Assembly: GCF_022045235.1 (NCBI RefSeq)
Contig: NW_027266286.1
Location: 14,446,001 to 14,510,000 of the forward strand
Reading direction: 5' to 3'
Length of the DNA stretch: 64,000 nt
From: Haliotis cracherodii
Taxonomy: Eukaryota
Shown here: one piece after another, positions 450 through 52,292 of the stretch
How the letters are laid out: each line of letters opens with the position of its first letter
How positions within the stretch are numbered: the stretch's first letter is position 1
Notes under the pieces: model-generated
Database searches by the model: none
Told to the model about the DNA's origin: nothing
Seen by the model: only the letters and a program-made list of their open reading frames with translations
Program-made: the position numbers and the translations under genes

Positions 450-610
450 CTATGAACACTCCCACTTTCTGTCCCGCTATTTGTTGTCTGGTGATGCCAG
501 CGTCCTCTAGCGCCATGTACGTGCACTCCAACACCTGGCGCTGCTGGGGGTCCATCTGGGCAGCCTCGGTTTCGTTGATCTTAAATAGCTTGTTGTCGAA
601 GTGATCGAAA
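450..610 (-). CDS. Type I polyketide synthase / FAS-like, ketosynthase domain, coding exon 2 (gene continues beyond left edge)
   Basis: [40 protein letters not shown]...KVGVFIG contains the KS 'MDPQQR' motif; acceptor TATTTTGCAG at 611-620; donor G|GTGTGT at 449; phase 2 matches the previous exon (AA+T=Asn). Confidence 0.93.
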
Positions 611-792
611 CTGCAAAATAAACACGAAGGGTAATTTCTCACAAAGCTTAATTATAGTCAACTGAATTGGATCATAAGCATAATCACACAACCGTAGTTT
701 GTAACAAGCTTCGTCCTCATGATTACAACTTATAAGAAAACAATAGTGAATATGTTATTCATGGATATACGACTATTGTTGATTTTTATTAC

Positions 793-1013
793 TTTTCTAT
801 GAGCCCTGCTTTCTTTGCGTAGCTCTTCCCGGCAGCATTGACGTCAGAGTCAAAGAAGGCGTCCATGTTCCATCTCTCAGGGGGAATATCCACCACGTGG
901 TTCTCTCCCTTTGCAAGGACATCCCAGAATTCCTCCAGGCAGGTGGCGCCAGGAAAACGACAACCCACGCCTATAATGGCTATTTCGTCACTCATGCTTC
1001 CTTTCGACTGCAT
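793..1013 (-). CDS. Type I polyketide synthase / FAS-like, KS N-terminus, first coding exon
   Basis: MSDEIAIIGVGCRFPGA...FWDVLAKGENHVVDIPPERW...KAGLIE is a canonical KS start; donor AA|GTAATA at 792; acceptor CCATTTTTCTAG ending at 1015 implies an upstream exon. Confidence 0.93.
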
Positions 1014-2741
1014 CCTAGAAAAATGGAACCTGGGGCATTAAGACGTGTCAGTGTCATTTCTCCCGGGCAGTCAAACACTTATTTTATATTTATCAACCCA
1101 TGACGAACATGCATTGCTTGAGCATAATTAATCTCAGTAAAATGTCACAATACATCGCGTGACATTAGTATGTATCGTCAAAAGTGAAGCTGTTTATTTT
1201 CACTCTTCAGCTTACTTAAGAAATAAACGACGAGTAGTCGTTGTTTACCGTACAATAAAACCCTGCAGGGAGAATAAACCATGAGGGGCGTAGCAGAGTA
1301 TGAAATGGGTTTTGTCTATCCTATCTATATGGTACGGGCAATCTGGCTCTTCTGCATCCTCTGTATATTTCAAGCAAAATGGAATTTTATATTCAAGCAT
1401 ACCTTGCAAAAGAAAGGCGTTTTCTGAAACGAAGTTTGACAAGTTTATTGCTTGTTTATTTTACTTTTTAGTCCCCATTATATAGTGTCAATAATTGATT
1501 TATTATTTAGTAAATAAAATCAGTGAAATAAAAAAATGGATTTCTTGAAATCACAAATTTTAAATGTATTTATTGTTATTTTCCTGGTACATATCTCAAC
1601 AAATAAACTATAAGTCAACACTAGTGTTGTTTCAAACGTCTGTCACGCTTTTAATTTTATGGATATATTTATTTGTGCTTGTTTGTGAATTAGTAATAAT
1701 TTATTTCAAGATATTTAGCAATTTTAATAGGCTAAACCTGACATCGTGCTAAAGGAACTCTTGTAATCTATGCAGTGAAGGGGTCATTTTATGTGAACAG
1801 AGCAGGATCATTACATTAATTGATATAAGAAATTCGATTTATTGACATCTACAATTAGCCATTAAAATAATTAGATATTACAAAAGAATTATTGACATTA
1901 CAAATTTCATAAGAATAAATCATAAAATAAATGATTTATATCACTAAATATAATTAACGGTATCCAAAATGCTTCTGATGATTAAAATATCTCAAGATTT
2001 TTTTTATATGACATCTTATTCGCGAATTATTTGCCTTAAGGCATTTGGAGCGTTTGCAAATATCACGAAATATATTCAGTACAAAAGAAATAGACAAAAA
2101 TTCAACGCAAGAGAATAACCACTTTTAAAAGGCAAAATACCGGTGAAAATAACTGAAAATCTGATTATCTGTCGCTTCAACCCGCAACCCTTATTGTAAA
2201 AACTTTTCACATTATTCTTACTTAAAGGGTATTTTAAACATTATGGATTGTAACGATACACTTATATGCTCAGCTCAAATATACAACATCGCGTGAGAGT
2301 GACTTAAATTTCCGCACAAAGTAGAAGTGATTTATATAATATGACACAGCAAAACGACTAGTAATGAGATGACTCATTTGGATCCCCGTTGATGTCCTCC
2401 TCTCACGTTATGGATCTTTAAATTCCTATGCACGATTTGTGTTCTCGGGAAATCTAAGTGTCGAATGAGGATCTTTTTCTGTCGTGTAAAACCCTAGAGG
2501 GTCATGGTAACCTGTTTTAAAAGTCAAATTATGCACAGAGCAGCGTCTGCTAATATACCGGATATCTATTCTAAAGAGGCTGTTTCAAATTTCGGAGGGT
2601 CATTAAAGTTGTTTTGACGTTATCCTAAAATTATGTTTTATTCCGTATATAGAGTTTTACGGGACGAGATAAAATACCTCCCATGAGTAGACGCAAATAC
2701 CTTACATTGCAAGTCATGCGGGACGGCTAAACATATATGTG

Positions 2742-2846
2742 CAGTAAACTACGGTTATAACGAACTCAAAGGGACTACTATTTTTTGTTCGTTATAACCG
2801 TAGTTCGTTATAAGTACATATAGAGCATGACTACAGCAAATAGTCG

Positions 2847-2851
<5 letters not shown>
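2742..2851. mobile_element. Truncated pogo/Tigger-like MITE
   Basis: Matches the left part of the complete MITE at 8357-8531 (CAGTAAACT.CGGTTATA...). Confidence 0.7.
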
Positions 2852-2904
<53 letters not shown>

Positions 2905-49168: not shown

Positions 49169-49170
<2 letters not shown>

Positions 49171-49415
49171 CACACACGTCCATCCACGTAGCTATACAAG
49201 TGCAATAATCTTGAACTCGATGGTAAACCAAATTTTACCTCATCTCATCAAAGCAGAAGTCAGACATAGTGTTCTTAATGTCAGCACTTACCTCTCCTGC
49301 ACCGTGTCTGTTGCCAACTCACATACGTGAAACGGATATCGTCAGTTCTATGCTTGTTTCAGTCATTATCCATTTTCCTTTTTTTTCCAGAAGTCAGCTA
49401 TGCGCAGCCACCAGG

Positions 49416-50400
49416 ATGTGCTCCTTCAATAGATGTTTTGAGGCTGTGTCCACCTTCTTCCAGAGAATATTTGAAAAGATCGGTGTTTTCATTGGCACCT
49501 ACCCAGTTGTGCTGATAATTGCCTCAATTGTAGTAACCCTTTGTCTCAGCTGCGGTATGATAACATTGTCCAACGAGACTGACACAGAGACACTGTACAC
49601 GCCCATTAACAGCAGAGCATCACAAGACAGAGTTCAGTACCAGGCCACGTTCCCAGACGCCACAGGAAGCAACTACCGCGGATATGCACTTACAGCTCTT
49701 GACATGTATGGCCGATTGTTGATAAGCAGCACGACAGGTGGGAACATACTGTCCAATGCATCCATGCAAGAAATACGGAACCATATTAGCACAATAAAAG
49801 ATATCAATGTTACATATGAGGGGTTGGTGTTCAAGTATGATGATATCTGTGCTCGACAAAATGGGAGTTGTTTTGCTTCTGGAGAGTTTCTCACAACAGA
49901 TGCTGTATATAATGCTTATCTGTCTGGTGGAATCACCTACCCAAACTGGAATAACATAGACATATCAGCATTTCTAGGACAGGTTAATTATACAGGTGAA
50001 ACAGTGGTATCAGCAAAGTACCTGAGTGTCACGTTTAATTTACGAATGGACTCAACGGTTAACAAGGCAAAAGCAAGAGCGTGGGAAGAAGCGTTCCTGA
50101 AGAGAGCAGCAAGTTTAAACACAACATTTACAAGGATAAACTATGCTGCCTCCCATTCACTAGACACAGAGTTGAACAAAAACACAAACGGAGACATCGT
50201 GTTCTTCTCTATTACCTTCACGTTGATGATCACGTATGCCACTGTCGTCGCCGGAGGTGATGTGGTGTCATCGAGGACGTGGGCATCATGGGCTGGCGTT
50301 CTTGCTGCTGGATTTGGCATATTGTCTTCATTTGGACTTGTTAGCCTTTGTGGTGTCAAGTTTGTCAATATCGTCGGTGTAACACCATTTCTGATCATAG
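49416..50400 (+). CDS. Patched domain-containing protein (PTCHD3/PTR-like), coding exon 1
   Basis: Acceptor TTTTTTCCAG at 49390, ATG at 49416 (MCSFNRCF..KIGVFIGTYP), TM1, LYTP..SRA, N-glycosylatable loop, AWEEAFL, start of the sterol-sensing domain, VTPFLII; donor G|GTACGT at 50401. Confidence 0.93.
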
Positions 50401-50562
50401 GTACGTTGAAATAGTTTGATAATAGAGTTATAGAATACAGACAATTGGTTAATGGTCAGATATATTTTATTTAAGTATCCATGCCACACCAGTGATATAG
50501 TCGCAGTTTGGATCTCCCATGCTGTGAAACAAAACATTATTCACATCCTCTTATTGTTGAAG

Positions 50563-50769
50563 GTATCGGTGTGGACGACATGTTCCTGTTGATGTCCAGT
50601 TGGGCGGAGACCTACCCACACCGAGACAAGTCCGTCGCCAGTAGGATGGGAATGACCTTTGCCTCAGCGGGTATCGGTATCACCATCACGTCCCTCACTG
50701 ATCTCCTGGCCTTCTTAACTGGCGTGTCCTCTGTGTTTCTCAGTGTGAGGAATTTCTGTCTCTATACAG
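50563..50769 (+). CDS. Patched domain-containing protein, coding exon 2
   Basis: GIGVDDMFLL (GxxxDD RND motif), ITITSLTDLLAF; phase 1-1, 207 nt, with AG/GT boundaries. Confidence 0.95.
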
Positions 50770-50904
50770 GTTAGTGTGTTCAACAGTACAGCCGGTTAAC
50801 TGTCTCACTAAAAGCCCAGATTATCTTCTCCCCTACAGTGCATGTAGTCCATTTGTGTCTCTAACATGATGGTCATGTCATATATATTTTCTTCTCATTC
50901 ACAG

Positions 50905-52292
50905 GAGTGGCCGTCATCTTCTGCTACCTGTACCAGTGCCTATTCTTCTCCCCCTGCCTTGCCATCCATGGCCGTCGGGTTCACAGTAACAGACACTGCA
51001 TGACCTGCCTCAAAACCAAATCCAGAGCCGAACTCAGGAAAGATGGCGCCTCCACCTGTAGAGTGTTATGCTGTGGAGGCTCACCACCAACAAAAAGAGG
51101 TCAGGATGAACGCTTCTTTGAGACACTGCCACGAAAGTACCTGCCACGAATGTTGCTGAGTGTGTGGGGGAAGGTAATTGTGATTGTGCTATTCTTGGCC
51201 TACCTTGGAGTGTCAATATGGGGAACACTGAACTTCAAACAAGGTTTGATTCTGAAGAACCTGGTCTCCACAGATTCATACTATCATTCCTATAGTGAGA
51301 TATATGATGCATACTTCTCAAGTGCTTTCCCTGTCCCGTTTGTATTTGGCCCAACCACAAATTACACAGACAAGAATACTGTAGATAATATCGAGTCTCT
51401 GGTCAATAGTTCAAAAACAGACTCTGGAGTAGATGAGAATTCGCTCATTTGCTGGTTCAATTCATATAAATCAGCAACTGCTTATGATAACAGCAGCACC
51501 ACAGCTTTTGTATCGGGATTGAAAACATTTTTTACAACAACCACATTATTTGATAACGATGTTGTATTTGATGCAACTGATACTGATATCAAAGCTTCCC
51601 GATGTTACCTTTTATCAACAAATATTAAAGAATCCAATGCTCAATCTGATGTTATGGTTCGAATGCGAGCTCTGGCAGACAACTCACCTCTCTCTGTCTA
51701 CACCTTCCACCCAGCCTATATCTTCTTTGAGCAGTATGCTGCTATTCTACCCAGTACACTACAAACTGTTGGTCTGGCGCTGGTCGTCATGACTGTGGTC
51801 ACCTGCATCTTCCTTCCTCATCCTCTTCTGGTTTTCCTTGTCGTCCTGAACGTCGTTTCTATCCTCGTTGGCATCTTCGGATTCCTATATATGTGGGGAC
51901 TGAGTCTCAGCTCAGTGACAATGATCCATCTCATCATGTCTGTCGGCTTCTCGGTGGACTTCAGTGTGCACGTGTGCTCTGCCTATATGATTGGAGAAGG
52001 AAGAAACAGGAGAGAGAAAACCGAATCTGCCATTGTCCATGCAGCTGGTCCCATATTAAACGGTGGAATGTCATCCTTTCTGGGCATTCTAGTGCTTGTG
52101 TTTTCAAAGTCCTACATCTTCAACTCCTTCTTCAAGATCATGTTCACAGTGATCCTGTTCGGCATGCTGCATGCTGTGTTCCTCCTCCCTGTGATACTCT
52201 CCATCCTTGGCCCTGTAACCAAGCCTTTCATAAGTCCTGCGAGCTCACGCAGCAACAGCCGCCCACCATCACCTCCCATAGACTACATGTAA
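50905..52292 (+). CDS. Patched domain-containing protein, terminal coding exon (total CDS 2580 nt, 859 aa)
   Basis: Acceptor TTCACAG at 50904; YIFFEQY, IMSVGFSVDFSVH, FFKIMF..ILFGMLHAVFLLPVILS; stop TAA at 52290-52292. Confidence 0.95.

Follow-up and report, generated by a model that had tools for sequence, protein, structure and literature searches.

A type I PKS gene and a PTCHD3-like transporter gene lie head to head in the window analysed here, a stretch of 64,000 nucleotides from Haliotis cracherodii, and the pairing of these two gene families is not a product of chance. On our analysis, we somewhat favour the view that the pair represents the abalone copy of a conserved reducing iterative PKS together with a candidate PTCHD3-like exporter of its lipid product.

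The synthase gene occupies the left edge of the window on the minus strand. Its first coding exon (1014-793) follows an acceptor AG that ends at 1015, contains the ATG at 1013-1011 and encodes the KS N-terminus. A 182-bp GT-AG intron (792-611) separates it from the second coding exon (610-450), which carries the KS to residue 127 and is followed by an intron that leaves the window. The remainder of the ~2050-aa PKS lies to the left. Both exons match Pfam ketoacyl-synt (model positions 2-65 and 69-120), and the 127 residues obtained by splicing them agree at every position (100%) with the N-terminal end of P0247, a Haliotis PKS of 2049 aa. These data bear out the type I KS gene proposed in the initial annotation. 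Two of the four runs examined, X1 and X2, gave contigs from which the KS intron is missing (610>793, CT..AC). These two runs had been selected because they contained 38% of the words of the transporter stretch; no run with these words is recorded as RNA. In runs X23 and X24, which contained almost none of those words, contigs did not cover the KS exons; because contigs cannot demonstrate absence, this observation was given no weight. Run X1 also yielded an unexplained 136-base contig piece at 2002-2137.

To classify the synthase, domains and catalytic residues were read on full-length P0247, which is identical to the window over the 127 residues. A search of representatives with KS exon 1 had returned mostly bacterial multi-module PKSs, P0247 being the sole useful match, and a second search, started from the Patella protein, yielded few additional named animals and not a single vertebrate. 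P0247 is a single KS-AT-DH-KR-ACP module with catalytic residues C179, H314, H351, S610, H914, Y1837 and S2001. It had no Pfam match to an ER or TE, although the stretch between DH and KR may contain a degenerate ER. Its scores were ~555 bits with both Mas and DEBS, 392 bits with FASN and 336 bits with EcPKS1; Mas was among its top solved relatives. In the KS tree, 16 mollusc KS sequences formed one clade (support 100/100). It is extremely improbable that the pair belongs to ordinary lipid metabolism, with the KS gene being FASN or an AFPK of FAS-like type: some relatives are named 'Fatty acid synthase' in UniRef, but the full-length relative lacks an ER or TE match and its scores against Mas and DEBS exceed those against FASN and EcPKS1. 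As far as tested, this assignment was therefore rejected on domain content and scores, which also answers the earlier question of whether the KS gene is canonical FASN. Judged from its sequence, the KS gene of the window is a canonical animal PKS (KS-AT-DH-KR-ACP), and neither FASN nor AFPK.

The transporter gene is on the plus strand, where an acceptor AG ends at 49390 and the ATG is at 49416. First coding exons that begin at splice acceptors had been noted for both genes, and the positions of the two AGs agree with this. Exon 1 (49391-50400, coding from 49416) encodes TM1, the first extracellular domain, TM2-3 and the start of TM4; exon 2 (50563-50769) encodes GIGVDD with the TM4 acidic pair D333/D334; and exon 3 (50905-52292, to the stop) encodes TM6-12, the second extracellular domain and GFSVDF with D749. 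The 859-aa protein contains no internal stops and 12 hydrophobic segments, carries GIGVDD at 329 and GFSVDF at 745, and is identical to the H. cracherodii record XP_071114269.1. The gene is thus intact and PTCHD3/PTR-like with its GxxxDD retained, as initially described; the PTCHD3 name derives from RefSeq labels, our quick Patched tree containing no vertebrate rows. The predicted structure (pLDDT 89.9) superimposed on NCR1, NPC1 and NPC1L1 with TM scores of 0.79-0.83 and on MmpL3, MmpL4 and MmpL5 with scores of 0.58-0.62, and the model indicates an NPC1/Patched fold with 12 TM helices, a sterol-sensing domain and two extracellular domains. In these features and in the acidic residues of TM4 and TM10, the protein resembles the PTCHD/PTR family, NPC1 and PTCH1; it differs in lacking the N-terminal domain of NPC1 and in being linked to a synthase. 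The TM4 GxxxDD was present in 88 of 104 relatives, the TM10 GxxxD in 102 and both in 86. The acidic residues of these helices, here D333, D334 and D749, would function in ion coupling. A pseudogene reading was rejected, the transporter frame being intact and the KS intron spliced.

The two ATGs are 48,403 bp apart, and the interval between the genes (1016-49388) contains Tc1-like, LINE-like and Gypsy-like remnants, SINE-like and tandem repeats, segmental duplications, and N gaps at 17980-18314 and 24347-24701. Within the window, 46% of 1015-49390 is repeated. We scanned 17 of the 62 window frames together with four pieces of the two genes. Among 13 interval ORFs, six matched transposon families above the cut-off, one gave a sub-threshold stray match and six were matchless. 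This is consistent with the earlier description of a head-to-head pair with only repeats recognisable between its members. No LTR pair was found around the Gypsy-like element, and the Rfam matches were limited to two weak ones of tRNA-like type. A tblastn search with 10 PKS/PTCHD3 proteins turned up no additional remnant. The upstream 5' exons of both genes, predicted from the acceptor consensus, and their promoters would fall within 1016-49388, and the interval may also hold small exons of a third gene. A short bidirectional promoter was rejected because the genes are 48 kb apart.

To evaluate the linkage across molluscs, gene order was deduced from the lengths of scaffolds and the order of identifiers rather than from coordinates. 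Of 40 named mollusc PKS matches, 27 share a same-length scaffold with a PTCHD3-like match, and such sharing occurs in 15 of 20 species. When only PKSs on scaffolds shorter than 6 Mb are considered, the proportion is 13 of 17, including scaffolds of 117 kb (Mizuhopecten) and 294 kb (Physella). A shared scaffold was not seen for 13 of the 40 matches and 5 of the 20 species, which is weak counter-evidence because the PTCHD3 list is incomplete. In 8 of 16 hand-picked nearest pairs, the two genes bear consecutive identifiers (for example SNE40_019126/019127, ACOMHN_037631/037632, BaRGS_00001027/00001028, OWF43457/43458 and XP_033751243/244). These pairs come from seven species of abalone, limpet, whelk, mudsnail and scallop, representing bivalves and three gastropod lineages. 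Under assumed family sizes, adjacency would be expected by chance at ~0.002-0.008 per gene. Conserved pairs are inherited and do not count as independent trials. H. rufescens and H. asinina each have two pairs. In abalones the paralogues match imperfectly: P0005 of H. asinina clusters with the transporter of the window, but its partner is a C-domain PKS.

It is highly improbable, and has been largely refuted, that two expanded families are neighbours by chance and that tandem duplication at the locus then multiplied the arrangement. One abalone scaffold does carry many paralogues of both families, as this reading would expect, but it does not account for consecutive identifiers in seven species from bivalves and three gastropod lineages, for the same neighbours reported in lizard and seastar, or for the joining of the two protein kinds in cnidarians. 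The initial annotation had been concerned about chance proximity and had proposed examining related species; conservation of the linkage in other molluscs contradicts that concern. Of the proposed synthase/exporter gene cluster, the conserved pair stands and a larger cluster does not: the unit is a two-gene module.

Similar pairs have been described elsewhere. The Meretrix protein MpES is likewise a mollusc type I PKS, and nearly all of its homologues adjoin PTCHD3 (Yue 2022, PMC9894158). In that paper, where the erythromycin claim is made, the synteny serves only to argue for an animal origin; Haliotis is unmentioned, the word 'export' is absent from the text, and 'transport' appears a single time, within a reference. 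In lizard, Ptchd3 adjoins Pks, with five copies of each that were co-duplicated, and a pigment role for Pks was not found in that study. PKS and PTCHD3 have also been reported as neighbours in seastar. The vertebrate iterative PKSs (medaka OlPKS, zebrafish pks1 and budgerigar MuPKS) resemble the abalone protein in length (~2050 aa) and KS-AT-DH-KR-ACP order, and have Ptchd3 as a neighbour in the Rab18-Ptchd3-Pks-Acbd5 locus. OlPKS, of 2051 aa and with the same five domains as the abalone PKS, has C173, S608, H914 and S2010 where the abalone protein has C179, S610, H914 and S2001: three catalytic positions are at most 6 residues apart and the ACP serine at most 9. By contrast, the KR tyrosine is at 1859 versus 1837 in abalone. 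Orthology to the pairs of fish, lizard and seastar is putative: our searches retrieved no vertebrate or echinoderm sequence, and the assignment relies on domain architecture, on residue positions and on how the papers name the genes.

OlPKS localizes to the apical surface and its product is extractable and acts non-cell-autonomously; extracts of Aspergillus expressing OlPKS, supplied in the medium, rescue otoliths (PMC4604110). Zebrafish pks1 seeds otoliths in the otic region. Expression of ptchd3a is widespread across the otic progenitor domain, and in the otolith-less dlx3b/4b mutants it is lost or falls strongly (PMC10261724); the otic expression of the two genes is drawn from separate papers. 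Human and mouse lack the PKS, and Ptchd3 is dispensable there; mammals nonetheless retain Ptchd3 and express it in sperm. In the available parts of the vertebrate PKS literature, the PKS pathway is described without a role for Ptchd3. Neither Hojo 2015 nor Lin 2024 mentions 'patched' in its main text, and no reference to Patched or PTCHD was found in that of Thiessen 2019, the JACS 2026 gene-bundle paper or the parrot PKS paper.

In cnidarian gene models, the two proteins occur as one chain, a form of support beyond the evidence of the initial annotation. In a jellyfish model (Sanderia P0435), a PKS is fused to a complete Patched domain, and according to a 2026 preprint most cnidarian PKSs, including anthozoan ones, carry a Patched domain (10.64898/2026.04.08.717340). 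The Acropora 'other-KS-AT-DH-KR-TE' models of Hojo 2015 are probably Patched-PKSs as well. These are the same two protein kinds, full-length and together; unlike the abalone pair, they form one chain on one strand and include a TE. The Sanderia KS (38.7% identity) and Patched half (25.8%) are distant from their mollusc counterparts; both are unplaced in the trees and neither grouped with the mollusc clades, and therefore the fusion may have a separate origin. Any single cnidarian case may be a merged gene model. The linkage (Yue 2022) and the cnidarian fusion are thus already in print as passing remarks; our literature search found no paper that reads them as one synthase–exporter module.

These data also bear on a second explanation, an ancient regulatory linkage through shared enhancers or a divergent promoter region without shared chemistry. 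The head-to-head layout with both 5' exons predicted in the interval, the overlapping otic expression in fish and the persistence of PTCHD3 in mammals without the PKS are consistent with such a linkage. However, it leaves unexplained the single-chain models of jellyfish and anthozoans, which need same-strand order, and the interval consists of 48 kb of young repeats. The co-duplication in lizard and abalone arrays fits dosage-linked partners better, and we regard this explanation as decidedly unlikely.

According to the synthase–exporter reading, the transporter likely exports a lipid because the pairing recurs in snails, limpets and scallops and the two proteins are joined in a jellyfish gene model. 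The KS-AT-DH-KR-ACP module, with every catalytic residue present and no ER or TE match, would perform malonyl extension, reduction and dehydration to yield an unsaturated, polyene-type acyl chain. Release of this chain would take place close to the membrane, and many paralogues may use a C-terminal condensation-like domain for it; full-length relatives of the window's PKS copy lack that domain. An ion gradient would then drive the chain through the 12-helix transporter, whose acidic residues in TM4 and TM10 are intact, and deliver it to the outer leaflet or to an acceptor outside the cell, probably at an apical surface. Cnidarian gene models have the proteins as one chain, and bilaterians have them as neighbours that were often duplicated together. 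If fish are a guide, nucleation of calcium carbonate in shell or statolith may be what the product does, or it may serve as a surface lipid or pigment; this is the least certain step. In weighing this reading, we counted in its favour the linkage, the transporter fold and acidic motifs, the likeness to OlPKS, the otic expression of ptchd3a, and the absence of the PKS from human and mouse, where Ptchd3 is dispensable. For the co-expression asked for in the initial annotation there are weak hints, namely the spliced KS contigs in the two runs chosen for transporter words and the otic expression of both zebrafish genes. Counted against the reading were the PKS matches and species with no shared scaffold, the Sanderia halves that fall outside the mollusc clades, the imperfect paralogue match, the inheritance of conserved pairs, mammalian Ptchd3 without a PKS and the lack of a pigment role in lizard. 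A further point against it is the extract rescue, since the product can evidently arrive where it acts without being pumped from the cell that makes it.

A bacterial precedent exists in the mycobacterial PpsE-MmpL7 system, which likewise combines a reducing type I PKS with an RND-fold transporter; Mas is near the abalone PKS, and MmpL folds match the transporter at TM ~0.6. The systems are not orthologous: the animal transporter belongs to the NPC1/Patched sterol-sensing branch, and the abalone genes are 48 kb apart without an operon. In the available portions of the sources, MmpL7-PpsE couples export to synthesis, and binding and export have been shown only for this bacterial pair.

It is also conceivable, albeit unlikely, that the two proteins are coupled in another manner, with the transporter anchoring the PKS at the membrane, supplying a lipid as its starter or acceptor, or taking up or sensing its secreted product. 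The fusion and linkage fit such roles equally well, OlPKS is apical though no membrane domain has been reported for it, and the available part of one study has C. elegans PTR-18 clearing an extracellular protein by endocytosis. The closest folds are those of NPC1 and NPC1L1, which move sterol into cells. Moreover, product added from outside rescues otoliths. Against these roles stands the bacterial precedent, and a transporter fused to a cytosolic synthase meets the product from inside, which favours export.

A broader proposal, possible but doubtful, is that the pair is an animal synthase–exporter module dating to the cnidarian-bilaterian split, in which a Patched-family RND pump is fused to an iterative PKS in cnidarians and tied to it genomically in bilaterians. 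The exported lipid would start calcium carbonate deposition in otoliths, shells and skeletons, and feather pigment would be a later re-use of it. PTCHD3 would be the pump, left without a partner in mammals, which would explain its dispensability there. Such a module would be more than 500 million years old. If the synthase–exporter reading is correct, the orphan PTCHD3/PTR transporters would gain a candidate cargo and a Patched relative a natural small-molecule substrate, and the product of a PKS needed in otolith mineralisation would have an exit route from the cell. Animal genomes would then contain a bacterial-style PKS-plus-RND module, and the pairing would provide a marker with which to locate animal PKS loci and their tissues.

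The PKS and PTCHD3-like genes lie head-to-head on opposite strands, confirming the arrangement described in the initial annotation. The minus-strand PKS gene has its first two coding exons at 1014-793 (ATG at 1013, preceded by an acceptor AG ending at 1015) and 610-450, which together encode 127 ketosynthase (KS) residues. These are 100% identical to the N-terminus of P0247, a full-length, 2049-aa PKS of Haliotis rufescens whose cluster includes XP_071114272.1, a 2051-aa H. cracherodii protein with the same N-terminus. The 182-bp KS intron has GT-AG ends and was spliced out in contigs from two of the four runs compared. 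One KS contig carried 14/198 first-exon mismatches and therefore derives from a relative or paralogue.

The plus-strand transporter gene (coding exons 49416-50400, 50563-50769 and 50905-52292) encodes an intact 859-aa protein, identical to XP_071114269.1, an H. cracherodii 'patched domain-containing protein 3-like' entry. The protein has 12 hydrophobic segments and the motifs GIGVDD and GFSVDF, which occurred in 88/104 and 102/104 transporter relatives, respectively, and together in 86/104. Its predicted model (pLDDT 89.9) gave TM values of 0.79-0.83 with NCR1, NPC1 and NPC1L1, 0.74-0.79 with PTCH1 and 0.58-0.62 with MmpL3/4/5. It is a structurally complete transporter of the RND lipid-transporting type. 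An out-of-frame ATG at 49400, 16 bases before the start codon and in the same exon, possibly opens an upstream ORF.

The two start codons are separated by 48,403 bp, and the 5' exons of both genes are probably located in this interval. The interval contains two N gaps and is self-repeated over 46% of its length, and of the 13 ORFs scanned, six matched families of transposase, endonuclease, RNase H, reverse transcriptase or integrase. Apart from transposon remnants and repeats, nothing was recognised there; a search for further PKS or PTCHD3 remnants found none. Upstream of the PKS gene, a 64-bp unit is repeated 18 times at 94% identity (3002-4149; 2 kb from the PKS start), and an older duplicated block (~2842-9688 and 13243-17117; pieces ~75-88% identical) may include copies of regulatory or 5' exon sequence. 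The two copies of a recent tandem duplication (17241-23169 and 23604-29598; 96-98% identity) have N gaps in matching positions; the duplication may be genuine or an artefact of assembly. Both copies carry a plus-strand 169-aa frame (20054-20563 and 26439-26948) that resembles the beginning of a Polinton/Maverick-type integrase; the first copy had no Pfam match. A plus-strand Gypsy-like retroelement (39687-43820) retains reverse transcriptase, RNase H and integrase in several interrupted frames and contains a tRNA-like SINE copy (~40994-41153); no LTR pair was found around it. Elsewhere, a minus-strand Thr/Ala-rich, low-complexity open frame (57936-58595) is either mucin-like or merely microsatellite.

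P0247 has the domain order KS-AT-DH-KR-ACP, with no ER or TE match in the domain scan, and retains C179, H314, H351, S610, H914, Y1837 and S2001. In comparisons with solved structures, its scores were ~555 bits for mycocerosic acid synthase and DEBS modules, 392 for FASN and 336 for EcPKS1, a FAS-like animal PKS (AFPK). P0247 is therefore neither FASN nor AFPK, and both identities were rejected. That the KS gene is a canonical FASN, which the initial annotation had named as a refuting outcome, can be practically dismissed. Sixteen mollusc KS domains formed a single clade (100/100) in a 35-row tree from which FASN and vertebrate rows were absent. In established PKS logic, KR and DH without ER leave double bonds. 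Because the abalone PKS has KR and DH and no ER match, its predicted product would be a polyene acyl chain. Many mollusc PKS paralogues of 2500-2700 aa carry a condensation-like C-terminal domain, which P0283, P0335 and P0357, among others, also have and the window's lineage lacks; it may serve in release or acyl transfer, in an echo of mycobacterial Pap proteins, and the HHxxxDG pattern occurred in 0/47 animal sequences scanned. Medaka OlPKS is described as a 2051-aa protein that shares all five domains, with active-site residues C173, S608, H914, Y1859 and S2010 (PMC4604110). By domain architecture and residue positions, the abalone PKS and OlPKS appear to belong to the same family.

Linkage of the two genes was evaluated for the 40 named mollusc PKS matches from species that also yielded PTCHD3-like matches. 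This count left out six Gigantopelta matches (no PTCHD3 match), one Mytilus match (other assembly), two without a scaffold, unnamed matches, Sanderia and extra cluster members. Shared location was scored by equal scaffold length, and neighbours by identifier order, not coordinates; locus tags normally track gene order, XP numbers only roughly. A scaffold was shared with a PTCHD3-like match by 27 of the 40 PKSs, in 15 of 20 species, and by 13/17 on scaffolds <6 Mb, bearing out the conservation in related species that had been proposed as a check. No shared scaffold was found in Biomphalaria, Bulinus, Littorina, Pomacea or Ylistrum; both searches were word-limited, and absence in these genera is not proven. 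Among 16 hand-picked nearest pairs, identifiers were consecutive in eight (two in H. rufescens and one each in H. asinina, Patella caerulea, Nucella, Batillaria, Mizuhopecten and Pecten), within 3 in 10 and within 14 in all 16. By contrast, chance would place 0.002-0.008 neighbours per PKS, assuming 20-100 Patched-family genes among 25,000. Mollusc pairs are inherited, not independent trials; nevertheless, chance neighbourhood, the worry stated at the outset, is very improbable. Overall, the linkage of PKS with PTCHD3 is genuine and has been conserved among molluscs. Because the PKS tree and the Patched tree (the latter a quick tree) both broadly follow mollusc taxonomy, these sequences fit one ancestral pair retained through repeated duplication.

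The pairing extends beyond molluscs. Yue et al. state that almost all homologues of MpES, a Meretrix clam PKS, have PTCHD3 as a neighbour (PMC9894158). In the wall lizard, the stretch from Rab18 to Acbd5, where the budgerigar colour mutant maps, is described as containing five full-length copies each of Pks and Ptchd3 (PMC10990284), and PKS1 and PTCHD3 are the sole genes given for a 55-kb sweep in Acanthaster (PMC12330192). P0435, a 3629-aa EukProt model from the jellyfish Sanderia malayensis, joins a whole Patched half, through ~40 linker residues, to KS-AT-DH-KR-ACP-TE; a pattern scan found the TM10 motif (GFSVDY) and did not find the TM4 GxxxDD. According to a 2026 preprint, a patched domain is present in the majority of PKS proteins from cnidarians (10.64898/2026.04.08.717340; Fig. 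S15 is relevant), and a 2015 table gives three Acropora models as 'other-KS-AT-DH-KR...TE' (PMC4604110). A painted-turtle model listed as 'other-KS-AT-DH-KR-ACP' (Hojo 2015, Table 2; PMC4604110) may represent a merged or fused Patched-PKS of a vertebrate. A simple history is contradicted by the distance of the Sanderia halves (38.7% identity for KS, 25.8% for Patched), neither of which grouped with the mollusc sequences in the trees. Hence, either the fusion is of great age or the two proteins were paired a second time, independently; both cases favour functional coupling. Linkage through regulation only is unlikely.

In the proposed mechanism, the PKS would form an unsaturated, amphipathic acyl product on the cytosolic side of the membrane, and the RND transporter would carry it outward in the manner of MmpL7, which is reported to export PDIM while bound to PpsE (PMC1238737). 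The likeness to PpsE-MmpL7 consists in a PKS with an RND transporter, binding and export being known for the mycobacterial side (PMC1238737). We infer an exporter role for the PTCHD3-like protein and consider export of the PKS product somewhat more probable than not. The published fish data fit such export. OlPKS is described as apical, and small numbers of wild-type cells suffice to rescue the whole otic vesicle via an extractable product (PMC4604110). In zebrafish, the otic vesicle expresses pks (PMC4604110, PMC6531356), ptchd3a expression is widespread in otic progenitors and Dlx3b/4b-dependent, and Dlx3b/4b mutants lack otoliths (PMC10261724). Vertebrate orthology of the pair is presumed from published descriptions, vertebrate rows being absent from our trees. 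Human and mouse lack the PKS (PMC4604110), and Ptchd3 is reported as dispensable in both (PMC7285965, PMC3072306). Counting against export, mammals without the PKS still express Ptchd3 (PMC7285965), and extract added from outside rescues otoliths (PMC4604110). That the genes are coupled in a way other than export is a lesser, though not negligible, possibility. In abalone, the PKS product may act in shell or statolith nucleation, as a surface lipid or as a pigment.

Side remarks in the literature already mention the gene neighbourhood (2022, 2024) and, for cnidarians, the domain fusion (2026). A synthase-exporter model joining the two was not found in the open-access literature, subscription papers such as Cooke et al. 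2017 lying outside this scope, and no mention of Patched or PTCHD was found in the main texts of PMC11739604, PMC6531356, PMC10764717 and PMC12833800. The abalone pair is an animal counterpart of the PKS-RND module, the linkage itself having been noted previously. The module would be pre-bilaterian only if the cnidarian fusion is very old, not if it is a second, independent pairing. Through the pair, PTCHD3 function and the export of an otolith-seeding polyketide become directly testable.
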